Assembly (NCBI GenBank): GCA_016839705.1
Contig: JAEOTR010000084.1
Span: forward strand, 1 to 64,000
Source of the DNA: Promethearchaeota archaeon
Lineage (GTDB): Archaea; Asgardarchaeota; Lokiarchaeia; Sigyniarchaeales; SOKP01
Reading direction: 5' to 3'
DNA: 64,000 bases
Below are positions 10,986 through 59,903 of this stretch, in pieces. How positions within the stretch are numbered: position 1 is the stretch's first letter; every line of letters starts with the position of its first letter. The notes under the pieces were generated by a model. It was not told the origin of the DNA and did no database searches. It worked only from the letters and a program-made list of their open reading frames with translations. Made by a program: the position numbers and the translations under genes.

Positions 10986-10990
10986 GGTGA
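10986..10990 (+). promoter_or_regulatory. SD-like GGTGA, 7 nt before the putative ATA start of the EF-2 paralog
   Basis: aaGGTGAaaaacttATAgtc; in-frame TAA at 10980-10982 excludes an upstream start. Confidence 0.65.
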
Positions 10991-10997
10991 AAAACTT

Positions 10998-13280
10998 ATA
11001 GTCAAAGTAAAAAACCCAGAAGAAATTGCTCAACTGGTAACTTCTGGTTCTTATGATAAGAAAAGGATCTTCAGCATCACTGCTCATATTGATCACGGAA
11101 AGACTACCGCAACGGATTACCTATTAAGAAGAGCAGGATTAATGAGACCCGAGGATGCCGGACAGCTCCAAATGACAGATTCAGATTTAGATTAAGATCT
11201 ACTTGATCTACTGAAAGACGAGGAGCAAGCCCGCGGTATTACTATTTTTACAAGTGTAGTGTTACTAGCATTCAATGACTCTAGAAAACCAGATGATCCT
11301 GAACCTTATATTATTCAATTAAATGATACTCCTGGTCATATTAGTTTTACCGGAGAAGTATCGCGAGCTCTTAGAGGTAGCGATGGTGCTATAATTCTGG
11401 TTGATGCGCTTGAAGGTGTTATGACCCAAACAGAGACTAATATTCGTTTATCTGTTGGTGAGGAATACTGTAAACCAGTTTTATTCATTAACAAAGTTGA
11501 CCGATTGATAAGTGAATTGAAGTTAAGTCCTCAAGACACGTTTGCTAGAATAGACAAAATCACACGCGAAGTTAATGAACTTATAAGAAAAATTCGACCC
11601 GAAGGTTCTGATTGGAGTATTGACTTCGCTAAAAATTCTGTTGCAGTTGGTTCAGCAAAACATGGTTGGGGTTTTACTTATGAAATCTTACTCGAAAAGG
11701 GACTAAAACCACAAGATGTTTTCGCAAAATATAACGAAGGAGATATCCAATGGTTAAGGGATAATCTACCATTAGACGAACCCATGTTAAGAATGATTGT
11801 TGATCATCTTCCTGATCCTATTACCGCTGCTAAATACAGGATCCCTCATATATGGGGAGGTGACCTAAGTTCAGAACTTGGACAATCTCTCGTGAAGAGT
11901 GACCCAAATGGTCCACTTTATGGGATGATTACAAAAATTTTTCTCGATCCTAAAAGGAATTATCAAGCTACACTTATCGGTCGTGTTTTTTCAGGCACAT
12001 TTGACCAAACTGACTCAATATACTTAATTAATAGTGATTCAAGCAATCGGGTAAAGAGGTTAGGTGTTATGGAAATAACAGATCTTTTAGATATTTCTAG
12101 GATCCCTGCTGGAAACCTGTTTGCATTGTTTGGTTTTGTATGCCCTGCAGGTGAAACATTTATGTTAACAAATGATGTACCAAAGGATAAAGAAGAAAGA
12201 AAATTGTTGCATCCCTTTGAAAAAATTCAATACGCATGCGAAGCGGTTGTATCAAGAAGCATTAAACCAAAAGATCCACATGAAATTGATAAATTAGACG
12301 AAGTAGTTGGAAAATGGCTTAAAGCGAATCCCGAGGCAGAATACCGAAGAGATGAAGAATCTGGTGAATTTGTACTCTCTGGAATAGACCCTCTCCAAAT
12401 TGAAATCTTAACTAAGAGAATTAATAACCAAGTAGAAATAAGCATTGGAGAACCAATTATTATTTACAGAGAAAAAATTACGAAAAGGAGTCCTGAATTT
12501 CATACAAAATCAGCAAATACACACAATCGTATTTTGTTATACATCGAACCTTTAGATGAAACTACAGAAAAATTAATCGAAACTGGTAAAATAAATGATT
12601 TGCAAAGTGAAAAAGATAGAGCTCAAATACTTAGGGAAGATGCAGGATGGGATGCAAAAGAAGCAAGACGAATTGTTGACGTGTATCAAGGAAGTCTACT
12701 TGTGAATGGTACTTCAGGATTACAGAGATTTGATCGTGTAAAATCCTATTTGAGTGCTGCTTTTAGGGATTGGATTGGTAATTGTATAATTGCGAAAGAA
12801 CCTGCGACGGGTATTAAAGCCGTCTTTTTGGACATGACTATACATGAAGACCCCCGTCATACGCAATATGGACAGATTGCAGGTATGCTGTTCTCAGGTT
12901 TAGCACTTGCCATGTTGGATGCAGGTCCTCATCTGTTTGAGCCTGTACAGAGAATCGATATAAAAACGCCCCAAGGTACGGAAGGAGGTGTAACTGCAAT
13001 AATCTCTAAGCGTCGAGGAAGAATAACTAACGTTATTCCTGAAGGTGAATACGTTAGAATCAAAGGTCAGATTCCTACTGCCGAACAAATCGGCATTGCG
13101 GATGATATCCGAGGCTCAACTCAAGGAAGGGCATTTTTTGGCTACGAGTTTAAGGGATTTGAAAAAGTACCTGCTTCTTCAGAAGAAGATCTAATTTTAG
13201 AGATTCGCAAACGTAAAGGAATGGCACTAGAAATGCCAAATAGAAAGAGTTGGGAGCGTTTTATTTATAAACGGACCTAA
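10998..13280 (+). CDS. elongation factor 2 family protein, probably Asgard paralog aEF-2p; join(10998..11186,11217..13280), about 750 aa
   Basis: Upstream of the tracked ORF the same frame encodes G1 AHIDHGKTT and QMTDSD. After a 30-nt insert it continues DEEQARGITI, DTPGH, NKVD and domains II-V. Diphthamide loop is divergent (HEDPRHTQYGQI). Putative ATA start. Confidence 0.92.
11187..11216 (+). other. putative BHB-type 30-nt mRNA intron in EF-2 paralog
   Basis: Central helix TCAG(11181-84)/CTGA(11211-14); 3-nt bulges ATT(11185-87) and AAG(11215-17); 9-bp stem TAGATTAAG/CTTGATCTA with a 5-nt loop. Contains an in-frame TAA; removal gives MTDSDDEEQARGITI. Confidence 0.85.
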
Positions 13281-13335
13281 TTTTTTTTAATTATCTTTAT
13301 TTGAAAATAGCAAAATAAAATATATTATATGATTA

Positions 13336-13934
13336 TTAAGAGAAACTGCTTATCTTAGCGATCATATATAATTTTTTCACTAGAGCTTGAAACGCATCGG
13401 TTACCCTTTGTCCTGTTAAAGCACTTGTTTTGTAATACCCTACAAATCTATTCTCTTTAGCAAATCGCTCTATATTACTATCTGATGTTGGTATATTTGG
13501 ATTCGAACCTAATTCCCCTTCATCAACCAAATCCACTTTATTTCCAAATAATACAATTGGTATATTCCCACAATGTGTTTTTAAGTCATTAAGCCATCTA
13601 GGAACATGTTCATAAGTCTGAGGTTGGTCATGAGAGTGAGAAAAAACAATTATAGCTCCACTACTCCCCGTATAGAATCTTTGGCGGAGTGCTTGAAAAG
13701 AATCTTGACCTGCTATATCCCAAAGATACAATTCAACTTTCTCACCATCAATAACCTCTTCATATTTAGAAAATTGCGTTCCAAGAGTTGAGATATACTC
13801 TTTCTGAAAAGCACCTTGAGTATATTTTTTGATTAATGATGTCTTTCCAACGGCTCCATCTCCAATAATTCCACTCTAAAGAATTTATTCAATAGATCTG
13901 TGATTTTGAAGCCGTAGCCTTTTTCAGTACTCAC
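13336..13934 (-). CDS. Rab/Ras-like small GTPase; complement(join(13336..13868,13898..13934)), 189 aa
   Basis: Spliced sequence MSTEKGYGFKITVIGDGAVGKTSLIKKY...YISTLG...WDIAGQ...GNKVD...KTSALTG is colinear with the neighbour paralog 14093-14647. The ORF track shows only the C-terminal part. Confidence 0.9.
13869..13897 (-). other. putative BHB-type 29-nt mRNA intron in Rab-like GTPase
   Basis: Minus strand aaaa-TCAC-aga-TCTA tt GAAT aa ATTC tt TAGA-GTGG-aat-tatt: 4-bp helix TCAC/GTGG (one G.U), 3-nt bulges AGA and AAT. Cutting after the second bulge base restores the frame and KITVIGDG. Confidence 0.85.
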
Positions 13935-14092
13935 TTTTTCCAACCACCGTTTTTTTAAATTTCTCTTTCTTTGATTAGTAAAAGTTAGATGTTTTAAATT
14001 TTTACAAAAGATTATCCTTCTAAAATCGAAATAAAAGACAATATTATCCGTATATGTTAAAAAAACTACTAATGTGGAATATAAAAAGTAAT

Positions 14093-14647
14093 TTAAATTG
14101 TAGCTCGTTGGTATAATCTAAATACTAAGGTTTGAAAAGCTTCTTTTACACCCTGACCTGTTAAAGCGCTTGTTTTATAATATTTAATAATCTTATGATC
14201 TTGGGCAAATTTCTTTACATGAACATCTGAAGTTGCATAATTTGGGCTTGTAGCTACTGCATTTTGATCGACTAAATCCGCTTTATTTCCAAATAAAATA
14301 ATAGGGATATTCCCACATGCTTCTCTAATATTTGACAACCATTTATCAATGTGTTGATACGTTTCAAGTTGTTCAGGAGCAAGAGAAAATACAATAATAG
14401 CACCGCTACTTCCTTTATAAAATCTGTCACGTAGAGTGCTAAATGACTCTTGACCCGCTAAATCCCATAAAAACAAATCAACCAATTCTCCATTCAGAAT
14501 TTCTTCATATTTCGAAAATTGCATACCTAACGTAGAAATATAATCTTTTTCAAATGTATTTGATGTATATCTTTTAATAAGTGAAGTTTTACCTACTGCT
14601 GCATCACCCACTACCGTTATTTTAAATCCAAAAGCCTTTTCACTCAT
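14093..14647 (-). CDS. Rab/Ras-like small GTPase (intron-less tandem paralog)
   Basis: GDAAVGKTS, YISTLG, WDLAGQE, GNKAD, KTSAL. Confidence 0.95.
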   Translation of the reverse strand: MSEKAFGFKITVVGDAAVGKTSLIKRYTSNTFEKDYISTLGMQFSKYEEILNGELVDLFLWDLAGQESFSTLRDRFYKGSSGAIIVFSLAPEQLETYQHIDKWLSNIREACGNIPIILFGNKADLVDQNAVATSPNYATSDVHVKKFAQDHKIIKYYKTSALTGQGVKEAFQTLVFRLYQRATI

Positions 14648-14809
14648 CTTTAAGGTTAAATATATTTTTTATCGTTTTTTCTAATAGTATAAATAAGAAT
14701 TTTTAAGCCTTACTAAGTTTATCAAGTATTTAAAAATCATTACTAATTATTCATTACCCACCGAAGCTTCTTATGAATGACAGATTGAATTTTTAAAAAA
14801 AATTCAATT

Positions 14810-15523
14810 TTAAAAACCAAATAGCTGTATCAATTCATTAGTGTCATTTACTAATATATCTGGTTTGTATTTTATCAAAATTTCTTTTTGGGCGAGACCT
14901 GAGGCAACACAAACCATTTTTACATTAGCAGCTCTTCCAGCATCTATATCCGTGGTCATATCTCCAATGAAAATTGCTTCTGATGTCTTTACACCCCACT
15001 TATCAAGAATTTTTAGGATGCCTTCAGGATTTGGTTTAGTTTCTGAAACATCGTTAAAACCAATAATTGTGTTAAAATATTTGGTGAGATTGAATTTTTC
15101 TAAAACATCTTCGGCATAAGTGCTTTTATTATTAGTAAGAATTGCTAAATTCAATCTCTTATTGTATAATTTTGAAATTAATTTATCAATACCCTCAAAA
15201 ATTGTCGATTCTTGATCTTTATATTTATTAAATTGATTAAATATGAATATAGCGATACGGATTTTTTTAAAGAAACTTAAGCCCTCTAAAAATTTCACTT
15301 TAAGTAACTCATAGGAATTAAGCAGTATTTTAGGCACAGGATAATTTTGAATTTCCTCAATTAAGTGAGCAATTTCTTCCATCACTTCATCACGATTAAT
15401 TGATAATTGATATTTTTCTATCCCATCGTCAACTGCCTTTTTAATTGATTCAGTAATGTCGTAAATAACTCCATCAAGATCGAAGATTATCCCTTTATAT
15501 TTTTCTAAATTAATTTTTTCCAT
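14810..15523 (-). CDS. HAD-superfamily phosphatase (Gph/PpaX-like)
   Basis: FDLDGV, LTN, KPNPEG, IGDMTTDI. Confidence 0.9.
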   Translation of the reverse strand: MEKINLEKYKGIIFDLDGVIYDITESIKKAVDDGIEKYQLSINRDEVMEEIAHLIEEIQNYPVPKILLNSYELLKVKFLEGLSFFKKIRIAIFIFNQFNKYKDQESTIFEGIDKLISKLYNKRLNLAILTNNKSTYAEDVLEKFNLTKYFNTIIGFNDVSETKPNPEGILKILDKWGVKTSEAIFIGDMTTDIDAGRAANVKMVCVASGLAQKEILIKYKPDILVNDTNELIQLFGF

Positions 15524-15645
15524 ACTAGAGTGATTAAATATTGAGACTAATTTTAATTATACGATTCCTCAATATTTATAGGACTAAAGCACTATTATAA
15601 TTATTATACTAAAAACTGTTTAATATTGTCTAAACTAAATAAGCT

Positions 15646-16530
15646 ATGAGCGAAAATCAAAAAGATTACAGTGAAAATGAGGTTATAAAAGAAGAAGAAG
15701 TAGAAGATGATGATTTAAAAACTTATTTAGAAGAAATAAAGACCCTCGAGGCGGATTTTTCCGATTTAGAGGATTTAGACATGGAAGAACTTCAAGAAAT
15801 CCAAGAAGCTATTACCCAAGTTAAAGAAAGCGAAGAATTACCTGAAGCTGAAATAACTGGTGAATCGGAACCTGAGGAAGAAACAAAGGGTGAGCTAAGA
15901 CAAGAAAAAGAGCTTAGGGAAGCAATGATTACAGATTTTTCTGATATGGATGAAATTGATTTTGACGAATTAAGAGATATGCAAGATGCAATCTCTTCTG
16001 TTAAACAAGAAGAATTGCAGGGAATGCCAGATGGAGAAAGTGAAATCCAGCCAACTCAGGCAGTTGCTAAAGAATTAGAGGATAGAATAAAACAAGAGTT
16101 ATTAAAACGAAAAGAAGTTGAAGAAGAAGTCATCACTCCAGAGAAATTTTTAGAGTATATTAAAAATAAACGCGATAAAATTTGGTATCATGCTCTTTAT
16201 TACTTATTATTCCATGTTGAAGATCATATTGCCTCAAAAATTCTACTATATGATGTGTTAAAAGAAGTAACAAGCAAATCTCCAATAGATCCGATCCCAG
16301 AACATCAGTTTTATTTCGGGTTAGGATATATATTAAGATTGAATTTGAATAATAAACAGATCGTACGATTTCTAAAAGATGGAAAGTTTAAAATTAATGT
16401 TAATATTGATAATTTAAAAGAGCTTTTAGAGGTTGCTGGTGAACCTATAAGCACACGTCCAGTTATAAAAGAGGAAGAAAAAAAAAAGATGTATAGGGAT
16501 TTTCTTGATGAAGATTTTTTTGATATCTGA
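15646..16530 (+). CDS. hypothetical protein with acidic duplicated N-terminal motif
   Basis: 294-aa ORF; repeat DFSDLEDLDMEELQEIQEAITQVK / DFSDMDEIDFDELRDMQDAISSVK; globular C-terminal part. Confidence 0.8.
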   Translation: MSENQKDYSENEVIKEEEVEDDDLKTYLEEIKTLEADFSDLEDLDMEELQEIQEAITQVKESEELPEAEITGESEPEEETKGELRQEKELREAMITDFSDMDEIDFDELRDMQDAISSVKQEELQGMPDGESEIQPTQAVAKELEDRIKQELLKRKEVEEEVITPEKFLEYIKNKRDKIWYHALYYLLFHVEDHIASKILLYDVLKEVTSKSPIDPIPEHQFYFGLGYILRLNLNNKQIVRFLKDGKFKINVNIDNLKELLEVAGEPISTRPVIKEEEKKKMYRDFLDEDFFDI

Positions 16531-16561
16531 ATTAATAGGATTCTTAGTAATTTGAAGCAAA

Positions 16562-17188
16562 ATGAGTGATAAACCTTCTCTATTGATTATCGGGAATTCT
16601 AATGTGGGGAAAAGTTCAATCACTAGATTATTATTACCAAATCCTAGGCAGTTTAAGGGTAAAATTGGTAAGTCTCCCGGTAGTACTTTATTGTTAAAGC
16701 CAATTGAGCAACATAACTTACCTTATAGAATAATAGATCTACCTGGGTTTGGTTATACTAGCCATTCTAGTCGACGAAGGGGAGAACATATCAAGAAACA
16801 AATTGTTCGTCATATCGAAAAACATAGTAGGGATTATTTTTTTGGCCTAGTAGTAATTAATATCTTAAGAATTGAAGATGAGCTTAATAAGTATTTTATA
16901 AAGGAAAAAAAAACTATCCCTTTAAGTTTTGAATTAATTCAATTTTTAAGCGAGTTTAAAATCCCTCTCTTGATAGTTTTAAATAAGATTGATAAACTTA
17001 CCATATTTGATAAGGATAGAATTATCCAAATATTTATTAATCATGCTAAGGAGTTCGGACTTAATTTGGTTCAATTAAATAAATGCAGTTATAAAGACCA
17101 ATTCGAGATCCCTTTCTTAGAGTTTTCGGCATTAAAAAAAAGTAATTTAAAAGAGTTAAAACAGGCTATTCAAAATCATCTAAAATAA
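16562..17188 (+). CDS. engB: EngB/YihA-family GTP-binding protein
   Basis: GNSNVGKSS, GKSPGST, DLPGFG, NKID, FSA. Confidence 0.85.
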   Translation: MSDKPSLLIIGNSNVGKSSITRLLLPNPRQFKGKIGKSPGSTLLLKPIEQHNLPYRIIDLPGFGYTSHSSRRRGEHIKKQIVRHIEKHSRDYFFGLVVINILRIEDELNKYFIKEKKTIPLSFELIQFLSEFKIPLLIVLNKIDKLTIFDKDRIIQIFINHAKEFGLNLVQLNKCSYKDQFEIPFLEFSALKKSNLKELKQAIQNHLK

Positions 17189-17197
17189 AGCTTCGAT

Positions 17198-17806: not shown

Positions 17807-17898
17807 TACATTTGGGAAAATAATGGGATCAATTTGAATCTTACGATTTCATTAGAGCTCTTCACATAAAAAGGAGGTGTAGCTTTTGCAGATATTAT

Positions 17899-19191: not shown

Positions 19192-19364
19192 TAGAAGAAC
19201 ACGTCAAACTCGAAATACTCAATAATATAAATAATTTTATTTTATTAAGATATTAAATTATATTCTTTAAAATTATAAGTACATTAGTAATTAGTAAAGA
19301 ACTTTTAAATTATAATTAAAAAAGAATAATAGATTAAGTAGAATAATTACTATTACGGTTTAAG

Positions 19365-20246: not shown

Positions 20247-20267
20247 TAAAAAATGAAAAACTAGAAT

Positions 20268-21161: not shown

Positions 21162-21162
21162 T

Positions 21163-22740: not shown

Positions 22741-22831
22741 ATATCTAAACTACACCTTGGTAATTAAATTTTAATTTGGTTGCTTTAATTTTTTTTTATA
22801 TTTTTTTTTCAATTAGAAAAACATTGAAGTA

Positions 22832-23308: not shown

Positions 23309-23449
23309 TTTTTATATCACATTTTATATAAATTTATTACTAATTAACAAGCATTAAAAGATGATTTTAAAAAATTTGGGGTCCAATGTTTATAAAAAAA
23401 TTGGAAATAACTGATACTAACAGAATTATTTACAAAATGACTACGAAAT

Positions 23450-48275: not shown

Positions 48276-48496
48276 TTATCAAATTTGAAAGTCAAGTAAA
48301 AAATTAAAACCTGATCCTTACCCATTGGTATTTTTTCATAGTTAATATGATGTGTTTGTATTCCTTAATTTCAGATACCAATTATTTTTAAGAATTGAAT
48401 ATATTATATTTTAAAAAAACAACAACAATTTTTATTCAATTCTACAGTTAAACCCAGATAGGTCAATTAATATTAATTAAAAGGTGAAGATATAGT

Positions 48497-49036
48497 ATTC
48501 CGTCTAGTGATCTAACGTATAAAGTCTGTATTTTCGGTGATGGTGGTGTCGGGAAAACCACGTTAATTGGACGTTATTTAACCGGTGTATTTCAAAGTAA
48601 TTCGGAAATTACTATAGGAGTCGACTTTCATATTAAGAGATTAGAGATTCAGGATAAACGAGTCACATTACAAATCTGGGATTTTGCTGGTGAGGACAGG
48701 TTTAGATTTTTATTACCCAGTTATGTACTTGGTGCTTCAGGTGGAATTTTCATGTATGATATAACTCGTTATAGTTCACTTAAGAATTTTCAAGATTGGT
48801 TATATATTTTTAAACAAGGCTATAAGGGGCCAATTGCTCAAATACCTATCATAATGGTCGGAAGTAAATTAGATCTGGAATATAAAAGAGCTGTTTCTAG
48901 GAAAGACGCATATGAACTGGCAAAACAAAATGATTTATTTGGATATATTGAATGTTCCTCTAAAAATGGTCAAAATGTAGAAGAAGTTTTTGCTGAAATT
49001 GCTAGGTTGATGATGAAGAATACTAAAAATGATTAA
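48497..49036 (+). CDS. Rab-like small GTPase, putative ATT start, 179 aa
   Basis: Open frame upstream of the tracked ORF: YKVCIFGDGGVGKTT, TIGVDF, QIWDFAGEDRFRF; then GSKLD, ECSSK. In-frame TGA at 48485 lies within the SD-like GGTGA. Confidence 0.92.
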   Translation: MPSSDLTYKVCIFGDGGVGKTTLIGRYLTGVFQSNSEITIGVDFHIKRLEIQDKRVTLQIWDFAGEDRFRFLLPSYVLGASGGIFMYDITRYSSLKNFQDWLYIFKQGYKGPIAQIPIIMVGSKLDLEYKRAVSRKDAYELAKQNDLFGYIECSSKNGQNVEEVFAEIARLMMKNTKND

Positions 49037-49067
49037 ATCTAAACCTGAAAAAATAAATCTTCACGAA

Positions 49068-49904
49068 TCAATTGCTCTTATAGATTTCTCCTAAATTTTC
49101 TAAAACTAAATCTGGGATAAGATTATTATCAAATTTACTCTCCTTGTTTTTGACCTCTTCAATCATTTCTCTTGTGACAACCCCTGTCAAAACTGCTATT
49201 GACATAATCCCCACCCTGTTTCCCGCTAGAATATCGGTATTTAATCGATCTCCAAAAATGCATGCTTGTTCAGGAGGGATTTGAGTATCCTGCAAAATTA
49301 ATTCTATACCAAAAGGTTCAGGTTTCCCAAATACCCTAATTGGATTTTGTCCTGTACAAGTAATCAAAGCATTCACCATTGAACCCGCTCCCGGTTTAAA
49401 ACCTCTAGCAACTGGTAAGGTAGAATCTGCATTTGTTGCATAAAATTGCGCTCTTCCCTCTAAGATACATTTTTGAGCAATCGATAATTTCTCATAGGTA
49501 AAATCTCTATCTAGTCCGACTATTACAAAATCGATATCCTCAATTGACGGATTAGTTTGGACTCTGTGACCCGCAAGTTCTAGTTCTTCTCTTAATCCAT
49601 TTTCCCCAATTACATAAATATTTGCATTCTTCTTTAATTTTGTGATTTCAGCAGACGCAATTGAGGCGCTGGTGTAAAAATCAGTTCTCTCACTCGAAAT
49701 TTTAAAACTTTTCAGTCTCTCAACGTAGGCTTGCCGTGAAATTGTGGAATTATTAGAGTTATATACTACCTTGATAGAGAGATTTTTAAGCTCATTTATG
49801 ATCTTATCAACATTTTGGATTAATTTATTTCCACGGTACACAACCCCATCAAGATCAAAAATAGCCAGTCTGATTTGTTTTAATGAGTCTATAAATTCTC
49901 GCAT
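49068..49904 (-). CDS. HAD-IIA hydrolase (NagD family)
   Basis: FDLDGVVY, SNNS, ATNAD, GKP, GDRLNTDI. Confidence 0.93.
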   Translation of the reverse strand: MREFIDSLKQIRLAIFDLDGVVYRGNKLIQNVDKIINELKNLSIKVVYNSNNSTISRQAYVERLKSFKISSERTDFYTSASIASAEITKLKKNANIYVIGENGLREELELAGHRVQTNPSIEDIDFVIVGLDRDFTYEKLSIAQKCILEGRAQFYATNADSTLPVARGFKPGAGSMVNALITCTGQNPIRVFGKPEPFGIELILQDTQIPPEQACIFGDRLNTDILAGNRVGIMSIAVLTGVVTREMIEEVKNKESKFDNNLIPDLVLENLGEIYKSN

Positions 49905-49939
49905 GGTTTTAAATTAGATAAATATTTTTTAAGATGTTT

Positions 49940-51094
49940 CTACCAGCCTACTGGCAATCCTAGTAATAATATAAAAAGCTGGATACCAATAGGGATGAAA
50001 ATTGGGTTTAAAAGATTATCCGCTGTAAATTTGGGAAAGTAATCTGTTATAAAAAATATAACTGCCCCAATTATTGCGTATATTGGTCCTACAAGGATTA
50101 AGCCTATTAAATACGCTACAATCATGCCTGCAAGAAAACCTTCTATGGATTTTTTATCTTTACTCCTTACCTTGACTTTATGTTTTCCGTATTTTCTACC
50201 AATTAACGCAGCAGCAGCATCCGATAGACAGGCAATAAGAATCCCCGAAAATACCGCTTTTATATGAACTAAATTTACCATATAGAGCATGTATGAAAAA
50301 ACAAAACCTGTAATTATATAAATTTGCGGTCCAGCAGCATTTCTTTCCTTTTTTCTTAACATGGATTTTGTTAAAAAGTTAAAGACTGAATACTCTGGTC
50401 CCCAAAAAATTCTGATTAAATCTGAGATTATAGCAAATATTAACGCTCCAATCAGCGCCATCATTGTAAGGTAAACAACTGCGAAATAATTGGATATTGG
50501 GTCTCCAATCGTAAATGGAAATAAGGTTAAATCCCCCCATATAAGGTTATACGCAGGTTCGATATTATGTATTAATTCAATCACTCCATCGCTTATTATC
50601 CGTGTAACAGGGTACATAAAAGGTAATCCAAAATAAGCTAACACTAGTAAAAGTCCTGTTAAATGAAAACTTTTTCTTATATACTCCATTCTCATAGTAA
50701 TTTCTTCTCCGTATTGGTTCTCTTTTGTCATTCTTTCAACGTATCTTCTTAACAGTGGTTTTTCCCCTTCTTCAATAATTACTCCATCGTCTTCTCTATT
50801 CATTTTCTTTTTTACTCTTTTGATCAAGAAAGAAAAAATAAAGTTTACGAGTAAAATAATACCGATCCACCATACCATAAATCCATTATAAGGATAAACA
50901 AAAAATCTTACAAGAGAATTATAATATCCAAAAATCAAGAAACAAATACCACTTAAAATAGAGGAAATCCCACCATACCGATTGCCTAATTTATATCCCC
51001 TTTTCCCTATAAAAAACATTAAAAGGGCTAAAATGAAAAATGTGAGAGATAAAGTAACATTGTAAGCTTCACCAATAGCAGTCCAGTAATCCAT
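49940..51094 (-). CDS. dolichol/phytol kinase (CTP-transferase) family membrane protein
   Basis: RKSFH, SDAAAALIGRKYGK, KKSIEG, DNLLNP. Confidence 0.85.
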   Translation of the reverse strand: MDYWTAIGEAYNVTLSLTFFILALLMFFIGKRGYKLGNRYGGISSILSGICFLIFGYYNSLVRFFVYPYNGFMVWWIGIILLVNFIFSFLIKRVKKKMNREDDGVIIEEGEKPLLRRYVERMTKENQYGEEITMRMEYIRKSFHLTGLLLVLAYFGLPFMYPVTRIISDGVIELIHNIEPAYNLIWGDLTLFPFTIGDPISNYFAVVYLTMMALIGALIFAIISDLIRIFWGPEYSVFNFLTKSMLRKKERNAAGPQIYIITGFVFSYMLYMVNLVHIKAVFSGILIACLSDAAAALIGRKYGKHKVKVRSKDKKSIEGFLAGMIVAYLIGLILVGPIYAIIGAVIFFITDYFPKFTADNLLNPIFIPIGIQLFILLLGLPVGW

Positions 51095-51440
51095 ATCTAA
51101 TCACCAAAAGAATGGTATTAATTAATTTAATAATTCACAATCTAATAATTATTCTTTGATTTCAGAATAAAATTAAAATAGAGGTAAAGAAAATCATTGA
51201 TAACCATTTATTATCTAAATTTTGAAAAAAGGATTATCCTAAGTTCTTAAAAGGTATATCCTCTTCTAAATCATTACAATACAAAAATTTCAAAACTAAA
51301 TTAATAAAGAACTAATAATATATTTTATTAGAGAATAAGTAATACAAAAAAATAAATAAAATTAAAATAAGTTAATTATAACTAGTATATTATAATTTTT
51401 TCTATCTCTAAATCGATTTTAATACTAAATAACAGGTAAA

Positions 51441-51818
51441 ATGATGGGAATAGAGCCAACTACAGAGAATCTTGACGAAATTTTAAAGAAACTTTTAGCT
51501 GCTATGCCAGAAGTTAGAGCCGCAGCGATAGTTTCTGCAGAAGGGCTACCCATTGCATCTGCGCTACCTCAAGGAGTTGATGAAACAAGAATTGCGGCAA
51601 TGACTGCTGCGTTGCTCTCCTTAGCCGAAAGGGCAGTTATCGAGATGGATAAAGGTGAATTCTCAGAATTATACGTAAAGGGAACCGATGGATATCTTCT
51701 AGTCATGGAAGCAGGTCCCAACGCAGTATTAACGGTCTCTACTACGAAAGATGTAAGGTTAGGTTTAATTTTTCTGGATTGTAAGCGTACTTGCGAAAAA
51801 ATCGCTAAGTTAATTTAG
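51441..51818 (+). CDS. roadblock/LC7 domain protein
   Basis: AAAIVSAEGLPIASALP...RIAAMTAALLSLAERA...LGLIFLD. Confidence 0.93.
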   Translation: MMGIEPTTENLDEILKKLLAAMPEVRAAAIVSAEGLPIASALPQGVDETRIAAMTAALLSLAERAVIEMDKGEFSELYVKGTDGYLLVMEAGPNAVLTVSTTKDVRLGLIFLDCKRTCEKIAKLI

Positions 51819-51916
51819 ATTAATTCTTACTCTATTACTGAGATTTTTTATTTATCACTTAGTGATATTTGTTATCCTAAGAGGTTTCTAAAGAAATTAA
51901 GAAATGTAAATCAATA

Positions 51917-52225
51917 ATGCCGAAAAAGAATCATTTTTATGCTATTATAAGACCTTATCGTAAAGATTTTATTACAAGACCGAATGAAGAAGAGGAAAAA
52001 ATCATGATTGATCATTTAAACTATCTAAAATCTTTGATGAATCAGAAGAAACTATATCTAGCCGGTCCAACATTAATCGCGGAGGATCCTTTTGGTGTAG
52101 TGATCTTTGAAACAGAAAATGCAGATGAGGCAAAATCCTTACTTGAAAACGATCCTTCAGTAAAAGCAGGAATACAGAAAATAGCAGACTTTAGGCCTAT
52201 TAGATTATCATTAATAAGAAAGTAA
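51917..52225 (+). CDS. YciI family protein
   Basis: HLNYL, LAGP, DPSV. Confidence 0.85.
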   Translation: MPKKNHFYAIIRPYRKDFITRPNEEEEKIMIDHLNYLKSLMNQKKLYLAGPTLIAEDPFGVVIFETENADEAKSLLENDPSVKAGIQKIADFRPIRLSLIRK

Positions 52226-52245
52226 TCTGTATTATAAATTTAATA

Positions 52246-53049
52246 TTAAAGGTTCAACTCTTTTATTGCGTCTTCTACTTCATAACCTTTTTGAACTATT
52301 AGATATAATGCTCTTACAAATTTTGTGGGATCATCTGCTTGAAAAACGTTTCTCCCAAATGCTACTCCAGCGCCTCCTACTTCAATTGATTGTTTTGTGA
52401 TTTCTAATATGTCTTTAATTCCTGACTTTTCTCCCCCTGCTATTATTACTGGTGCCATACAACCCTCAACAACTTCTTTAAACGAATCAGGATCTCCCGT
52501 CCAATTAGTTTTAACAATATCTGCTCCCAATTCGGCTGCAACTCTTGCGGCAATCTTTACTACTTCGACGTCTTGTTCATTTTCTATATTTTCACCTCTC
52601 GGATACATCATGGCAATAAGCGGCATACCAAGATCACGACATTCCCTTGATACCCCTCCTAGTATCTCAAGCATTTCAGGATCTGATTTTGTACCAACGT
52701 TGATATGAATCGATACTCCATCTGCTCCAAATTTGACTGCTTCTAAAACCGTATTTACAAGAACTTTATAATTTGAATCGGGGCTTAAAGATGTCGAACC
52801 AGATAAATGAAGAATTAATCCTATATCTGGTCCATACCCTCTATGAGCGTATAAAGGTATACCTACATGCCCCAAAATTGCATTAGCTCCACCTAATGCA
52901 ATCTTATTTACTACTTCTCCTAAGTTTTTTTCAATTCCCTTAATTGGTCCTAAAGTTAGACCGTGATCCATGGGGATGATGATTGATTTTTTAGTTTCTC
53001 GATTAATTATCCTTTCCAATCTAATTTTTTTACCAATATAGCCAGACAA
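52246..53049 (-). CDS. class I DhnA-type aldolase (ADH synthase / fructose-bisphosphate aldolase)
   Basis: GKKIRLERI, PMDHG, AMMYPRG, AELGADIVKT, GRNVFQ. Start moved to TTG 53049. Confidence 0.9.
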   Translation of the reverse strand: MSGYIGKKIRLERIINRETKKSIIIPMDHGLTLGPIKGIEKNLGEVVNKIALGGANAILGHVGIPLYAHRGYGPDIGLILHLSGSTSLSPDSNYKVLVNTVLEAVKFGADGVSIHINVGTKSDPEMLEILGGVSRECRDLGMPLIAMMYPRGENIENEQDVEVVKIAARVAAELGADIVKTNWTGDPDSFKEVVEGCMAPVIIAGGEKSGIKDILEITKQSIEVGGAGVAFGRNVFQADDPTKFVRALYLIVQKGYEVEDAIKELNL

Positions 53050-53270
53050 GCTTAAAATTCCCTCATTTTTTATTTTAATTAAAATTATTTGACTAAATAG
53101 AATATTAGAAAATACCTTTAATAATTCTTTCAAACACTCTAAATATTTCTTTAAGCACAAAACCACAAACTATTAATTTTTTCTTTCATATAATAAAATA
53201 CAAAACTTCGTTTTGCTTCATTATACAAACAGTTTAGCAAATATATCATTATCAATTAATTTTTGAACAG

Positions 53271-53882
53271 GTGTTTAATATCTTTAAACTTTTTACAATT
53301 GAAGGAAAAATTGAGATACCACCATTTCTTTTTGACCAGGAAAAGAGTGTAAGTGCCAGAATAATCTTAAGTGAAGATTATGAAGGCATTATCACAAGAG
53401 ACTTTGGATTTATTATTGCTGTTGTTGATGTTATAAATGTTGGAATGGGAATAATTATTCCAGGGAATGCTAATACGTTCCATGAGGTTGAATTTACGAT
53501 CCTTACATTTAAACCAATTGTTTCAGAAGTAGTTGAAGGAACTGTAGTTGAAATTGTGGATTTTGGCTCTTTCATTCGTTTAGGTCCTTTGGACGGTTTG
53601 GTTCATGTATCTCAAATTTGTGATGATTATATTTCTTACGAACAAGTAGGGAATAGATTTATCGGTAAGGAAACTGGAAAGATCCTTGAAGTAAATGATC
53701 AAGTAAGAGCAAAAATTATTGCAGTCTCTTTAGGAACAGGAAGAAGTGGAAAGCTTGGATTGACGATGCGTCAGAGGTATTTGGGAAAGGAAGAATGGAT
53801 TGAAAATGATCTCGAGGAAGATATTACTAACCAACAAACCGATCAAACAAAAGTTGATGAAGAAGAAAGTGCAACTGAATGA
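53271..53882 (+). CDS. rpoE1: RNA polymerase subunit E' (Rpo7)
   Basis: IEIPP, EVVEGTVVEIVDFGSFIRLGPLDGLVHVSQI, LTMRQRYLGK. True start may be ATC 53280. Confidence 0.96.
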   Translation: MFNIFKLFTIEGKIEIPPFLFDQEKSVSARIILSEDYEGIITRDFGFIIAVVDVINVGMGIIIPGNANTFHEVEFTILTFKPIVSEVVEGTVVEIVDFGSFIRLGPLDGLVHVSQICDDYISYEQVGNRFIGKETGKILEVNDQVRAKIIAVSLGTGRSGKLGLTMRQRYLGKEEWIENDLEEDITNQQTDQTKVDEEESATE

Positions 53883-53916
53883 TTAGTTAAAAAAAAACGA
53901 GGTTCAAGGTGAGGAT

Positions 53917-54105
53917 ATGAAAGAGAGAGCGTGCAAAAACTGTCATTTGATAACCAAGAACGAAACAGTTTGTCCTAAATGCAAAACCCACACTTTAAGT
54001 GAGGATTATACAGGCGAGGTTATAATCATAAATCCTAAAGAATCGAAATTTGCTGCTCATTTGAAAGTGCACTACCCCGGTAAGTACGCTTTAAGAGTAC
54101 GTTAA
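53917..54105 (+). CDS. spt4: transcription elongation factor Spt4 (RpoE'')
   Basis: ACKNCH...CPKC...PGKYALRVR; follows rpoE1. Confidence 0.95.
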   Translation: MKERACKNCHLITKNETVCPKCKTHTLSEDYTGEVIIINPKESKFAAHLKVHYPGKYALRVR

Positions 54106-54159
54106 GCTTATAACCCATTTTAGTTATCATATTTTCCTATATAATAAAACTTGATTTTC

Positions 54160-54744
54160 ATGAACGATAATCTAAAGGTTCCAAAGAGAACTCGGAGATC
54201 ATTTGCACAACCACTGGATATGCTAATCGCTGGGAGTCGAGAAGATACTATCCCCCAAGTCGAAAATATGTTTAGAGATCTTCTACAACTTGGGAGATCA
54301 TTAAACTTTTATATAGTTGGGGATATTGTTGCCCAAGATTTCTTATCAAACTCATTTTTAAAGTCATTCATTAAAATCTGTGTTATAGATGAAAAAACTC
54401 AGAGGAACCAAATTAATATCGAGTATGGAGGTTTTTTTGAAGTAGAAATTGAATTAACCAATCCAGCAGGTTCAATTAATAAGGAGAGTTGGGAAATTTT
54501 TCGAACATCTATAGCTTCGAATAAAAGAACATTGATAAAAGTAACGGAAGGAGAGGAAGATTTGCTAATTCTTCCTCTAATAGATGAACTCCCCCTTGAT
54601 GATCGAGGACATTTTGCTTTTTATGGTCAACCTCCTATTACTGATTCCCGTTTTATTATTCCCGAAGGGATTGTCATTGTAAATGTTGATAAGAATATTA
54701 AAGAAAAGGTAAAGAGAGCTTTAGCGGTTATGGATTCGATTTGA
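54160..54744 (+). CDS. GTP-dependent dephospho-CoA kinase (DUF359)
   Basis: VGDIV, NPAG, GEEDL, YGQP; conserved position after spt4. Confidence 0.88.
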   Translation: MNDNLKVPKRTRRSFAQPLDMLIAGSREDTIPQVENMFRDLLQLGRSLNFYIVGDIVAQDFLSNSFLKSFIKICVIDEKTQRNQINIEYGGFFEVEIELTNPAGSINKESWEIFRTSIASNKRTLIKVTEGEEDLLILPLIDELPLDDRGHFAFYGQPPITDSRFIIPEGIVIVNVDKNIKEKVKRALAVMDSI

Positions 54745-54895
54745 GGATTCGAGTTTATTTCTTCCTCTTTTATTTGAAGCTTTATACTAATAAAAAGCAA
54801 AATTTTATTTTTTATCTCTCCTTTTGATTTTTATTAAAAAGAAATAAAGATAATATTACTTTTTAGATAATATCAAATTTGAAAAAAGGTTCAAA

Positions 54896-55249
54896 ATGTC
54901 CCTAAATATTGAGATTAAAGAGGAAAAGAAAAATCCCCTAATAGATAGAATAGAAGTGACATTTATAATAGATCATTTCCAGCAGGGAACCCCAAATAGA
55001 TTAGAAGTGAAAAAAAAAATAGCTGCAATGCAAGGTTCTGATGAAAAATTAACTATTATTAAATCCCTGAACACTCATTTCGGTAGATCTTCTACCCAGG
55101 GAGTTGCTTATATTTATGATAATTCAAAAGAACTACAATTCTACGAACCTTTTCATATCCAAGTTCGAAATCTTAGAAAAGACAAGCGAACTGAAATAAT
55201 ACAGCTAAAGAAAAGAAAGGAATCTTATAAACATCTTTTTGAATATTAA
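54896..55249 (+). CDS. rps24e: 30S ribosomal protein S24e
   Basis: NPLIDRIEV, TPNR, THFG...G.A.IY. Confidence 0.93.
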   Translation: MSLNIEIKEEKKNPLIDRIEVTFIIDHFQQGTPNRLEVKKKIAAMQGSDEKLTIIKSLNTHFGRSSTQGVAYIYDNSKELQFYEPFHIQVRNLRKDKRTEIIQLKKRKESYKHLFEY

Positions 55250-55274
55250 CAATTACAAAAATCATGGAATAAAA

Positions 55275-55493
55275 ATGGATGCATCAAAATATTATAAATT
55301 GGAAGGAGACAAGTTAGTACGAACTCATAGATCGTGCCCTAAGTGTGGACCAAGTTATTTTCTTGCAAACCACTATGACCGGTCGAGTTGTGGAAAATGT
55401 GGTTACACTGTATTTAAGAGAAAAGGAATTGCTAAAGGAAAAACCACTAGAAGGGCTCCTCGTAAACGTATGAAATCAATAGACGGGAGTTAA
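55275..55493 (+). CDS. rps27ae: 30S ribosomal protein S27ae
   Basis: CPKCGPSYFLANHYDRSSCGKCGYT; ATG 55275. Confidence 0.93.
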   Translation: MDASKYYKLEGDKLVRTHRSCPKCGPSYFLANHYDRSSCGKCGYTVFKRKGIAKGKTTRRAPRKRMKSIDGS

Positions 55494-55594
55494 TCTCAAA
55501 ATTTAAAGAAATCTAAAAAAAAATACCTCTTTAAACATATTGATTTTCATTTTAAAAAATTTTAGATTTCAATAAGGAAAATACGGCGAAATTA

Positions 55595-56605
55595 ATGCAA
55601 AAATATTGTTTGGGTATTGAAAGTACTGCACACACATTTGGAATAGGAATTGTTGATTTTGAAGGAATAGTTCATAGTTTGATAAACGATATCTTTATAC
55701 CCGAAGAAGGAGGACTCCATCCTGCTTTAGTACGTGAACAACATTTAAATAATTTTAAAACGGTAATAATTAAAGCACTCAAAGAGTCAGAATTATCAAT
55801 AAAAGATATAGATCTAATTGCTTTCAGTCAAAGTCCTGGATTAGGACCTGTTCTAAAAATTGGAGCTTTAATTGCTCGAATGTTAAGCCAAGTTCTAAAC
55901 ATTCCACTTGTAGGTGTAAATCATTGTATAGCTCATGTAGAAATTGGACGTTTAATGTGTAAAATTGATGATCCCCTTACTTTATATGTATCTGGAGGTA
56001 ATACTATTGTCAGTGCTTTTGAATCTGATAGATATCAAATTTTTGGAGAAACACTTGATTTAGCTGTTGGGAATATGATTGATTCCTTTGCTCGAGATGC
56101 GGGACTAAGTCATCCTGGGGGTCCAAAGATCGAGAAACTGGCGCTAAAATCAGATAAATATCTTCCATTGCCTTATACTGTCAAAGGTATGGATTTATCA
56201 TTTTCAGGACTATATACGGCATCAAAAAGATTATTAGAATCTCAAGACTTTAATGTTAAGTATAACTTAAATGACGTCGCTCGATCTCTTCAAGAAACCG
56301 CTTTTTCTATGCTTGTTGAAGTTACTGAACGAGCTCTTGCACACACAGAGAAGAAAGAAGTGTTATTAACAGGAGGTGTAGCAGCAAATAAAAGATTGCA
56401 ACAAATGGTTCATTCTATTAGTAACGAGCATGGAGCAAGATTCGCAGTAGTTCCTTTAAAGTATGCAGGAGATAATGGAGCCATGATAGCTTGGGCGGGA
56501 ATATTACGATATCAGTCTGAAGGTGAGCATGAAATAGGCAATACAATAATCAAACCAAAAGAGAGAATGGATTATATCAAAATTCCTTGGAGGTCAGGGG
56601 ATTAA
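55595..56605 (+). CDS. kae1: KEOPS t6A threonylcarbamoyltransferase Kae1
   Basis: GIESTAH, VNHCIAHVE, YVSGGNT, GGVAAN, DNGAMIA. Confidence 0.97.
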   Translation: MQKYCLGIESTAHTFGIGIVDFEGIVHSLINDIFIPEEGGLHPALVREQHLNNFKTVIIKALKESELSIKDIDLIAFSQSPGLGPVLKIGALIARMLSQVLNIPLVGVNHCIAHVEIGRLMCKIDDPLTLYVSGGNTIVSAFESDRYQIFGETLDLAVGNMIDSFARDAGLSHPGGPKIEKLALKSDKYLPLPYTVKGMDLSFSGLYTASKRLLESQDFNVKYNLNDVARSLQETAFSMLVEVTERALAHTEKKEVLLTGGVAANKRLQQMVHSISNEHGARFAVVPLKYAGDNGAMIAWAGILRYQSEGEHEIGNTIIKPKERMDYIKIPWRSGD

Positions 56606-56606
56606 G

Positions 56607-57278
56607 ATGAGTTCTGAAATAACTACAGAAAAACTTATCCATAAGGGTGCTGAAGCAAGTTTATTCTATGGTCATTGGTTTGGTAGAAACGTAATTTTTA
56701 AGCATCGAATTCCTAAAAAATATAGACTAGAAGAACTCGATAAAAAAATTCGAAGCGAGAGAACATTAAACGAAGGAAAAGCACTGATAAAGGTAAAAGG
56801 TTATGGATTAAATGTACCTCAAATTTACGAAATTGACACCCAGAATTCTATTCTCATCATGAAATATATCGAAGGAAAAAAATTGAAAAATATCTTAGAA
56901 AGCCTTAGTAAAAATAAAAAAGAAAAATATTTTAAGAAAATTGGTCGAGACATCGCAGTTTTACATAAGAATGGACATATTCACGGCGACATAACTACAA
57001 GTAATTTAATCGTTACAGATGAAGAAGAAATATTCCTCATCGATTTTGGACTACATGAATATTCTGATACAATAGAAGATAAAAGCGTTGATCTTCATCT
57101 TTTCAAGAGGGTCTTGATTTCTAGTCATGGTGATGATTTTGAATTCTGCTTTAATGCCTTCCTTGAGGGTTATAAGTCTGAATATGAGATTATCAACAAA
57201 ACAGATTGTGATCAGATTATTAAAAACATTAATGCAATAGAGTCAAGAGGTAGGTATGTAAAACCAGAGGATAGATAA
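56607..57278 (+). CDS. bud32: KEOPS kinase Bud32
   Basis: KGAEA, HGDITTSN, IDFGL, EDKSVDL, RGRY. Confidence 0.96.
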   Translation: MSSEITTEKLIHKGAEASLFYGHWFGRNVIFKHRIPKKYRLEELDKKIRSERTLNEGKALIKVKGYGLNVPQIYEIDTQNSILIMKYIEGKKLKNILESLSKNKKEKYFKKIGRDIAVLHKNGHIHGDITTSNLIVTDEEEIFLIDFGLHEYSDTIEDKSVDLHLFKRVLISSHGDDFEFCFNAFLEGYKSEYEIINKTDCDQIIKNINAIESRGRYVKPEDR

Positions 57279-57664
57279 TATGGTAAAATCCTCATATAAG
57301 AGATTTGAATTTATCTAGAAAATAGTATATTTTTGTTTTAAAAGGTAGATTTATTCTAAAAAGAGGAAATATAAAAGAAATGATGATTTTTTAATAAGAA
57401 TAAAATTTTTTCAGTCACTCATTTATTTATTCATATAAAATGTTCATCTAAATAGTTAAACATTTAAAATAATGTATATCTGGTATAGAATACTTTAAAT
57501 ACTTTAAATAGAGACAAATAACTTTATAAATTTATTTTACTTATACTATATTAGTGGAAAAGAGTGAATAACAGTAAGGGCAAAGCATATATCTGCGTTT
57601 CTTATTCACATTTTGATTTTTTATAAAAATAGTTTTCAACTCTAGATTACTTGGAGTAAATCTA

Positions 57665-57868
57665 ATGACAGACATGAAGAAAAAGAAACCTAAGATGATC
57701 AATATTACAATAAACATACCGGAAATTTATGATGAAAATATTCAGAATCTTATTAAAAAAAAAATTGTACCAAGTCGATCTGAAGCTATAAGAATTGCCC
57801 TTAGAGAATTTTTACACAATGAGTATAAGAACTTAAAATTACTTGGCTTTTTTGAAAATACTTCTTAG
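57665..57868 (+). CDS. ribbon-helix-helix (CopG/MetJ-like) regulator
   Basis: ITINIPE...PSRSEAIRIALREFL. Confidence 0.88.
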   Translation: MTDMKKKKPKMINITINIPEIYDENIQNLIKKKIVPSRSEAIRIALREFLHNEYKNLKLLGFFENTS

Positions 57869-58003
57869 TCTTTTAATCTACTCATATTAAGCTTCCTTTA
57901 AAGTAAGATGTCTTATTTTATGTTTATTTTTGATAAGTTAAAATTAAAAACACTATTTTATTTAGTTTTACTATACAAATTTTAAACTAATGAGAGAAAC
58001 TCC

Positions 58004-58606
58004 ATGAAATTATTTACTATATATGAAAATGGTGTTCTAAAGAAAATTGATAAAGTAGACTTTAACGATAAGAAAGTTTATCTGATTGATGATTTTAAAG
58101 TTTATTATTTATGGTTTGGTTCACACTGCTCTGAGAAGAAGAAAGAATTCGGAAAAAAAAGAGCAAAAGATCTAAATAATAAACGTAAATCCCCCGCTAA
58201 AATTCAAATTATTCATCAAAATAAGGAGTATGGAGCCTTTCTGGCTATTATGGATATCTTAAAGGAAGGATTAAACAGTGAGGATTCTAGAATAAAAAGA
58301 GACGAATTAGTTTTTGAGTTAGAAGAAACACTAGAACTTATTGATGCGGGATTAGAATTGGATTTAGAAGCCGAGATAACTCTAAAGGCCCACAAACTAT
58401 CACAAGAAGGAATATCATATGAAGATTTATCTAAGCGACTAGCAGAAACACAACTAATTCTCTTAAAGGGAAAAGAAAAGCCTTTAGAAAGTGAAATTAA
58501 GAAAAAAACTGAAGAGATACTAAATTCTTCTTCTACGTTTGAGGAATTGGCCTGGCTTGTATCAGAACTTGAAATTTTAATTATAAAAAAACAATTGAAA
58601 CAGTAA
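58004..58606 (+). CDS. single gelsolin-like domain protein with helical C-terminal extension
   Basis: FNDKKVYLIDDFKVYYLWFGSHCS...IIHQNKEYGAF matches the gelsolin repeat pattern (F..DVYILD...IY.W.G...QG.E...F). Confidence 0.72.
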   Translation: MKLFTIYENGVLKKIDKVDFNDKKVYLIDDFKVYYLWFGSHCSEKKKEFGKKRAKDLNNKRKSPAKIQIIHQNKEYGAFLAIMDILKEGLNSEDSRIKRDELVFELEETLELIDAGLELDLEAEITLKAHKLSQEGISYEDLSKRLAETQLILLKGKEKPLESEIKKKTEEILNSSSTFEELAWLVSELEILIIKKQLKQ

Positions 58607-58658
58607 TGAATTACTAAGTGAGGTTCAATCTATATTTAAATTATAGCCGTCTTTGTTT

Positions 58659-58901
58659 TTATCTTCTTGTTCGAATTTTTCTTGCTTCCCGTTCTACTTC
58701 TCTTAAAATTACAACATCATTCATTTTAATAGGCCCCTTGACATTACGAGTTAAGATTCGATTTTTATCTGGTCCATCTAAGATCCGAACCTTAATTTGT
58801 GTTATTTCTCCTGTAAGACCAGTTCGACCAATTATTTGAATAACCTGAGCTGGTGTAGACTGATCTTTAACTGAAACCTTAGATTTATCTAATTTTACTA
58901 T
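58659..58901 (-). CDS. rps28e: 30S ribosomal protein S28e, putative ATA start, 80 aa
   Basis: [61 protein letters not shown]; GGTGA 6 nt before ATA. Missed by the ORF track. Confidence 0.96.
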
Positions 58902-58920
58902 GATTATTCACCAAGTTGTT

Positions 58921-59292
58921 CTATTTTTTTATTTCTTCCAAATTCTTAATTACATCATTTAAAATACCATCATTTCCGGTTCCAACGTTTTCTATAGCTA
59001 TAGCACTTGCTGATACATTAATTCTAGCAGTATTACCAAGCTCTTTCTTTGTTGTTAAATAACCATAAGGAATACCTTTTTCTTCGCACAATAATGGTAT
59101 GTGGAATAATATCTCTGGGGGACTAACATCTTCAGCCATGATAACGATTTTAGCTTGTACTCTTTCGATTGATTTAGTAACTTCATTCATCCCTTTTCGT
59201 AATTTAGAATCTCTAGTCTCTGCGATTTTACTTAAGGCATTCTTAAGCTGATTTTTTAATTTATCCGGAATTTTAAATTTAATATATGAAAT
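58921..59292 (-). CDS. rpl7ae: 50S ribosomal protein L7Ae, putative ATT start, 123 aa
   Basis: (M)SYIKFKIPDKL...KLRKGMNEVTKSIER...AEDVSPPEI...LCEEKGIPY; GGAGATGA upstream. Confidence 0.96.
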   Translation of the reverse strand: MSYIKFKIPDKLKNQLKNALSKIAETRDSKLRKGMNEVTKSIERVQAKIVIMAEDVSPPEILFHIPLLCEEKGIPYGYLTTKKELGNTARINVSASAIAIENVGTGNDGILNDVIKNLEEIKK

Positions 59293-59702
59293 ATTTAATC
59301 ATCTCCTTCAAATATACATTAATATATTTTCATAAATCATCGATATTCGATACACTTTTTAATACAAGATTAAAGATAAAATTTGTCATTTGGGACAAAA
59401 AGCCTAAAAATTTTTCTTTATATACTCTTGAGGGATTAAGTGATAAACATTCCAAATAATTGTGAATTTATCATGAAAGTTAGTCTGAAAAAATTAAAAG
59501 GATTAAAAAAAATTAATAATTTATTTGCACTTATAATTTGGCTAGGGTTATTAACAGAAGCAATTATCTGTATGTGGATTTGAGAAATGGAAAAACTTAT
59601 TTTTAATGAATTACTTGATAACATACATTTAGAATAATTCTAATTTTATTATCAAATCTATTAAATACATAAAGCAAATTAACCCAAAGGAGGAGATGTA
59701 TC

Positions 59703-59903
59703 ATAATTATACCGATCCGCTGCTTTTCATGCGGAAAATTAATAGCTCATATTTACGAGCCTTATTTGGAGCTTTTGGAGAAAGGTGAATCATCCGAAAA
59801 AGCCTTTAAAGAATTAGGGATTGAAAGGTTCTGTTGTAAAAGAATGGTGGTTAGCCACGTGGATTTAATAGATGAGTTACTTAAATTTCCACGCTTGCAA
59901 TAA
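59703..59903 (+). CDS. rpoN: RNA polymerase subunit N (Rpo10), ATA start, 66 aa
   Basis: (M)IIPIRCFSCGK...LGIERFCCKRMVVSHVDLID; GGAGGAG upstream. Missed by the ORF track. Confidence 0.96.
   Translation: MIIPIRCFSCGKLIAHIYEPYLELLEKGESSEKAFKELGIERFCCKRMVVSHVDLIDELLKFPRLQ

Follow-up and report, generated by a model that had tools for sequence, protein, structure and literature searches.

Besides ATG, GTG and TTG, called canonical here, NCBI translation table 11 lists ATT, ATC, ATA and CTG as alternative initiators, and mitochondria use ATN initiation. In E. coli near-cognate starts have been confirmed for two genes, infC and pcnB, and in reporters such codons reach 1–2% of the AUG level (10.1101/063800). 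The AUU or AUC start of infC is the target of autoregulation by IF3 (PMC5499595). An annotation-based comparison of 36 prokaryote groups found that of 61,358 ancestral AUG starts one had changed to AUU and two to CUG; in this work Belinky, Rogozin and Koonin (2017) described compensation of GUG and UUG starts by a Shine–Dalgarno (SD) motif and left out CUG and AUU as too few (PMC5622118). Reviews of archaeal initiation name AUG, GUG and UUG only. Here we describe seven genes with near-cognate starts behind SD motifs in a 64,000-nt stretch (the window; positions 1–64000 of contig C82) from a Promethearchaeota archaeon of the Asgard class Lokiarchaeia (Promethearchaeia), whose metagenome-assembled genome (MAG; G000 below) comprises 3.36 Mb at 31% GC, together with similar starts elsewhere in this genome and in its relatives. 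ATA, ATT and ATC are jointly written ATH. The near-cognate codons are almost certainly real translation starts, as judged from orthologous start columns and a genome-wide SD test. Such starts are known in kind; their scale and the set of genes affected are new here.

Near-cognate starts in the window

The seven codons and their SD motifs were found where a first-pass annotation of the window had placed them. For rpoN that annotation had the ATA codon right but listed no SD, although AGGAGG is present. Product names were assigned by NCBIfam, and the SD motifs were read from the sequence.

10986..10990, + strand: SD GGTGA of the aEF-2 paralogue (EF-2p), fitting the anti-SD of the organism's own 16S 3' end
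10998..13280, + strand: EF-2p, ATA start at 10998; 751 aa without a 30-nt insert
48483..48487, + strand: SD GGTGA of the Rab-like GTPase
48497..49036, + strand: Rab-like small GTPase, probable ATT start at 48497
53269..53273, + strand: SD AGGTG of rpoE1
53280..53882, + strand: rpoE1 (Rpo7), ATC start at 53280; ATG in this column in four congeners and one outgroup
58659..58901, − strand: rps28e, ATA start at 58901; TTG, GTG or ATG in this column in 23 congeners
58908..58912, − strand: SD GGTGA of rps28e
58921..59292, − strand: rpl7ae, ATT start at 59292, supported by orthologue columns
59299..59306, − strand: SD GGAGATGA of rpl7ae
59688..59693, + strand: SD AGGAGG of rpoN
59703..59903, + strand: rpoN (Rpo10), ATA start at 59703; ATH where congeners have an SD, ATG where they lack it
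62920..62925, + strand: SD GAGGTG of the alkyltransferase-like (ATL) gene
62933..63259, + strand: ATL gene, probable GTT start at 62933; ATT or ATC in this column in five relatives

In the five main genes an in-frame stop lies 2–10 codons upstream of the near-cognate codon, and no canonical codon occurs before essential N-terminal residues. The first one is codon 49 in EF-2p (past the P-loop), 86 in the Rab-like GTPase, 60 of 80 in S28e, 35 in L7ae and 22 in RpoN (past the CxxC motif). Orthologue comparison puts the near-cognate codon in the Met1 column, only approximately so for the Rab-like protein. The gap between SD and start is 6 nt in rpoE1, S28e and L7ae, 7 nt in EF-2p and ATL, and 9 nt in the Rab-like gene. 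Two cases are weaker when taken alone: rpoE1, because an in-frame GTG sits inside its SD, and ATL, which has a GTG at codon 9. The exact start codon is least certain for the Rab-like gene, where an ACG at 48515 is an alternative and orthologues start 0–3 codons away at ATG, and for ATL, the lone GTT case.

The start columns show how the codon varies among relatives. For L7ae every one of the 24 loci of the genus has a near-cognate codon (ATT in 21, ATA in 3) and a stop 1–2 codons before it; six genomes from other families have ATG. RpoN starts with ATA, ATT or ATC in six genomes that carry a purine-rich SD and with ATG in eight congeners that lack it. In two congeners (G024 and G017; L332 near 12290, + strand, and L333) rpoN carries an identical hairpin insert of 31 nt that separates Val from Ser-His, a candidate mini-intron whose predicted fold gives no clean bulge–helix–bulge. 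The EF-2p column has ATG in 27 of 27 relatives parsed, and the SD match in G000 is longer than in most congeners. In EF-2p of G000 a TAA lies in frame 6 codons upstream of the ATA. The 30-nt insert at 11187–11216 (+ strand) contains an in-frame TAA at 11193 and fits a bulge–helix–bulge fold with a helix of 4 bp (TCAG/CTGA), two bulges of 3 nt and an inner stem of 9 bp. Its removal restores S-D-D-E and the 751-aa frame, and six congeners carry an insert at the same site while 15 do not. It is probably an mRNA intron of the tRNA-endonuclease type, as suggested by this fold. Because the insert reads as an intron and the frame is restored without it, EF-2p is not regarded as a pseudogene. EF-2p is the only EF-2 match found in G000; the second EF-2 match of most relatives was absent with the query used, in an assembly that is 93% complete.

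It could be argued that the near-cognate codons are artefacts or are bypassed, through assembly error, a pseudogene, RNA editing that creates AUG, or a start within the SD at an ATG or GTG in another frame and a later frameshift. G000 is a MAG of 93% completeness and 6.8% contamination, the L7ae SD does contain an out-of-frame ATG/GTG, and 7 nt ahead of rpoN lies an out-of-frame ATG. All four variants were rejected, and we consider such an origin extremely improbable. Assembly error is contradicted by agreement of contigs from other samples and by conservation of the codons across species. Against pseudogenes, the genes for L7ae, S28e and RpoN are essential and intact, and L7ae has a single match in the genome. 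Editing would require several different base changes. For a frameshift, the linker after the out-of-frame ATG has no conserved slippery run, and the out-of-frame ATG of rpoN is missing in congeners.

The runs that contain window DNA are marine sediment metagenomes. Logan contigs from four of them (X1–X4, one study) were compared over positions 48300–63300, a span that excludes EF-2p, and showed zero differences at the six start codons within it. The suspicion that reads might correct these codons to ATG, raised with the first-pass annotation, was thus checked, and the contigs keep the codons at all six sites. The Rab-like, rpoE1, S28e, L7ae and ATL sites are covered also by X2, X3 or X4; the Logan piece listed for RpoN comes from X1 only, which may be the source run.

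In databases, single near-cognate cases already sit unremarked. Record GCA_048938005.1 annotates L7ae at full length with Met1 at ATT, and 17 of the best 120 matches in an L7ae search are 112-aa forms that begin at codon 12. The expectation that standard annotation misses or truncates such genes therefore holds for the 112-aa records but not for the full-length one. Exact look-ups with Ile or Val at position 1 gave no match, and none is expected because databases write Met there. A literature search, in which subscription journals were thinly covered, turned up no description of ATH starts for Asgard archaea.

Genome-wide coupling to Shine–Dalgarno motifs and variation among relatives

The 16S rRNA of G000 was missed by an Rfam search, and its 3' end was located by pattern at a contig end. 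It reads GGATCACCTCCT, a canonical anti-SD that was taken as the SD reference and that the SD motifs match, as a comparison proposed in the first-pass annotation shows. For a genome-wide test, SD matches of at least 5 nt near the 5' ends of open reading frames (ORFs) with no canonical codon in reach were collected, and the in-frame codon 4–8 nt downstream was scored against an expectation taken from positions 13–31. In G000, ATH codons occurred 80 times against 29.9 expected (p=2.4e-13), whereas four control motifs gave no excess in the same test (p=0.26–1.0). The ATH codons peak 6 nt downstream of the SD (33 of 69), in the same zone as ATG; ATA and ATT are commoner than ATC, and of the 64 codons only ATT, ATA and CTG stand out. 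The first tally, made without this conditioning, had given a weak signal. The near-cognate excess amounts to about 60 sites compared to 426 canonical ones. By this count near-cognate codons make up about 12% of SD-led starts and serve at least 2.1% of the 2840 ORFs, a few genes entering at more than one site. The latter figure is a lower bound because weak SDs and SDs with an in-frame GTG, such as that of rpoE1, were left out. Near-cognate starts thus extend beyond one or two regulatory genes.

The first-pass annotation had ascribed the starts to relaxation at the third codon position. This agrees with the bulk of the excess, in which ATH accounts for 50 of about 60 sites, but CTG (7 against 0.5 expected), ACG (5 against 1.6) and the GTT of ATL also occur. 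The same division bears on the idea that the initiator tRNA is modified at its wobble base and so reads the third position more widely, to include AUA, AUU and AUC. Formylcytidine is such a modification in animal mitochondria. The predominance of ATH would be accounted for, and DNA does not reveal tRNA modifications. Nevertheless CTG, ACG and GTT require tolerance at the first or second position and the near-cognate codons need an SD. Internal ATG faces ATA 165 times, ATT 149 times and TTA 172 times, so ATA is not favoured and internal ATA is, by these counts, not reassigned to Met. A wobble modification is accordingly a highly improbable explanation.

The test was repeated in two further genomes. 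In G006, a relative, ATH codons were found 25 times against 9.6 expected (p=3e-5). The repeat was weak in G032, which belongs to another family (15 against 7.5, p=0.016); one ATC and two ACG starts of G032 align with ATG in G000. A pairwise comparison with a congener, filtered for antisense shadows and for selenoprotein-like cases with in-frame TGA, left about 8–10 of 347 orthologues that were convincing by eye, about 3%. The CTG and ACG starts swap with TTG and ATG in orthologues. As a separate observation, conserved frames with in-frame TGA on contigs C15, C5, C81 and C34 are common to G000 and G006 and consistent with selenoproteins; a tRNA-Sec was called on C18 of G000.

The spc cluster allowed start columns to be followed over 80 related loci, in which ATG, GTG, TTG, ATA, ATT, ATC and ACG alternate. 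uS14 starts with ATH in 42 of 74 cases, uS8 with ATA in eight and ACG in two, uL22 with ATT in four and uL14 with ATC in two. In seven genomes of other families at most one doubtful case was seen. In G000 itself uS14 has an ATT start (contig C16, position 7313, + strand), 6 nt behind GGTGA. Genes with near-cognate starts adjoin genes with ATG starts within the same operon. Taken with the aIF1 starts described below and the test in G006, this bears out the earlier view that the habit is lineage-wide; near-cognate starting probably spans the order, with core-gene use higher in the organism's own family.

These columns also tie the starts to an SD, as had been proposed, along with the RpoN alleles and the peak at 6 nt. 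An SD of at least 5 nt accompanies 41 of 42 near-cognate uS14 alleles compared to 3 of 25 ATG alleles, and 10 of 10 near-cognate uS8 alleles compared to 16 of 44 ATG alleles; these are raw counts to which related genomes contribute, so they do not represent independent events. When 77 loci were placed on a tree, the start codon switched at least five times in uS14 and at least four times in uS8. Among independent pairs the SD changed in the same direction in about four of five (uS14) and two of four (uS8), and never in the opposite direction. Three gene pairs between G000 and G006 contrast a near-cognate start with an SD and an ATG without one.

The initiation machinery and possible mechanisms

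A further near-cognate start is that of the initiation factor aIF1, which proofreads start codons and whose gene lies outside the window.

L031:1477–1791, contig C76 of G000, − strand: aIF1, ATT start behind a GTGAT motif, no canonical start

The aIF1 start is ATT in 14 of 14 genomes parsed in the organism's own genus (g1) and ATT, ATC or ATA in five other genera (g13–g17) of its own family (f1), so that all parsed genomes of this family are near-cognate. ATA is found in three genomes of f2, two of f5 and one of f7, so that most of the class shares a near-cognate aIF1 start. From residue 5 onward the protein aligns to residue 3 of PDB 4MO0, and it is complete, retaining the Zn knuckle and the basic loop. 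In the two families examined within the organism's order the sequence of this loop is RRKWG or close to it, against RRYG or RRFG; other orders keep Tyr-Gly. In Pyrococcus, Tyr32 of aIF1 stabilises the 30S:mRNA complex (PMC6237735). The Tyr to Trp replacement may therefore be considered a candidate machinery change, but a conservative one.

Other components look ordinary. The initiator tRNA (C76, around 9715) is canonical: it carries A1-U72 and the anticodon CAT, and its anticodon stem contains three G-C pairs. Its gene (C76, about 9715–9840, + strand) is interrupted by an intron after position 37; default ARAGORN and Rfam both missed it. aIF1A is present and intact, and uS9 retains its terminal Arg. 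G000 carries two divergent aIF1A genes (L342 on C97 and L346 on C38) where four relatives have one, which may reflect a paralogue or contamination (6.8%). The aIF2-gamma ORF (C97, near 40385, + strand) is 539 codons long and extended at its N terminus by a stretch that resembles a helix–hairpin–helix by eye. A regex search of G000 did not match aIF2alpha, aIF5B, uS13, eS26 or TiaS, but this method is weak and no proof of absence.

From the above, initiation at the near-cognate codons can be envisaged as follows. In line with known archaeal initiation, the SD duplex would fix the 30S subunit and thereby place the near-cognate codon in the P site, where the ordinary Met-tRNAi (CAU anticodon) would pair with one mismatch and provide Met1. 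Start discrimination would be set low throughout the lineage, such that these starts are efficient enough for stoichiometric proteins including L7ae, S28e, uS14, uS8, Rpo10 and Rpo7; this is the weakest step of the scheme. It is probably aIF1 that keeps discrimination at this level; in Sulfolobus this factor discriminates against non-canonical starts (PMC6237735). Excess aIF1 would cut its own synthesis via its ATT, ATC or ATA start, comparable to IF3 at the infC AUU. AT-biased mutation of the third base of ATG in a 31% GC genome would supply the codons, and a strong SD would let them persist. The wider range of the aIF1 near-cognate start compared to that of L7ae suggests that the putative aIF1 feedback loop is the older of the two. 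We regard a low-stringency set point with aIF1 feedback as fairly likely on the sequence evidence. The stronger proposal, that such feedback makes SD-led AUH, CUG and ACG nearly equivalent to AUG in Promethearchaeia, even for ribosomal proteins, is more tentative, and we would put it at slightly less than an even chance.

Several observations weigh against the scheme above. No altered component was found among aIF1, aIF1A, the uS9 tail, the initiator tRNA and the anti-SD, and these parts give no sign that the relaxed stringency suggested by the first-pass annotation lies in the machinery. The independent uS14 and uS8 pairs do not reach significance because of their small number (median p 0.125 and 0.5, respectively). 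A 5-nt SD precedes none of the four near-cognate uL22 alleles, and S28e has an identical SD whether its start is ATA or canonical; because of these exceptions the link to an SD is incomplete. In two f2 genomes and in the f6 genomes the aIF1 start is TTG or ATG. The pairwise spectrum test, which compared the codons opposite start ATG and internal ATG, was uninformative (p=0.82).

The unaltered components also fit another explanation, in which the starts are real and stringency is ordinary, and a low-efficiency leak is tolerated by slow growth, through drift under AT bias, or serves to throttle single genes. Cultured Lokiarchaeia indeed grow very slowly, and the preference for ATA and ATT over ATC is what AT bias predicts. 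In E. coli AUA, AUC, AUU and CUG already initiate at 1–2% of AUG (10.1101/063800), AUA equalled AUG in activity in one in vitro system (PMC5499595), and strengthening of the SD with GUG and UUG is general in prokaryotes (PMC5622118). However, the genes affected include 1:1 subunits of the ribosome and RNA polymerase beside operon neighbours with ATG starts, ATG and ATH interchange repeatedly on the tree, and L7ae is fixed as ATT or ATA in 24 genomes. We therefore consider a tolerated leak unlikely, though a serious contender, and sequence alone cannot separate it from an aIF1 set point.

Comparison with known initiation systems

The closest parallel is given by infC and pcnB of E. coli, whose AUU starts also lie behind an SD and are, as here, presumably read by the initiator tRNA. 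The E. coli hierarchy of AUA, AUC, AUU and CUG agrees with the codons enriched in G000 (10.1101/063800). The difference is one of extent, since here about 60 genes per genome are involved, ribosomal proteins and RNA polymerase subunits are included, and the codons swap repeatedly. SD compensation as described for GUG and UUG (PMC5622118) pairs a weaker start with a stronger SD; in this lineage raw counts point the same way, and the coupling would reach ATH, CTG and ACG. Mitochondria resemble it in that ATA, ATT and ATC are routine starts in AT-rich genomes, but here AUA is not reassigned to Met, the starts depend on an SD and the full archaeal factor set is kept.

Gene callers restricted to ATG, GTG and TTG cut off the P-loops or Zn motifs of Asgard proteins such as EF-2p, Rab, Rpo10 and aIF1, and the shortened proteins affect marker-gene sets and the choice of expression constructs. 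With about one in eight SD-led genes having a near-cognate start, aIF1 included, the evolution of start stringency toward eukaryotes becomes testable in cultured Asgard archaea.

The putative aIF1 feedback is best compared with the autoregulation of IF3 and eIF1, with which it shares a fidelity factor gene that has a conserved poor start, here ATT, ATC or ATA. aIF1 is the homologue of eIF1, whereas its fold is unrelated to that of IF3 (PMC4705826). eIF1 is autoregulated through a poor start context (Ivanov 2010, as cited in PMC6237735). In contrast to the eIF1 loop, aIF1 would rely on a near-cognate codon and an SD and has no Kozak context. A literature search found no paper on aIF1 autoregulation of this kind in archaea. 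If the proposal is true, the aIF1 loop would be the archaeal counterpart of both IF3 and eIF1 autoregulation, in the group nearest to eukaryotes.

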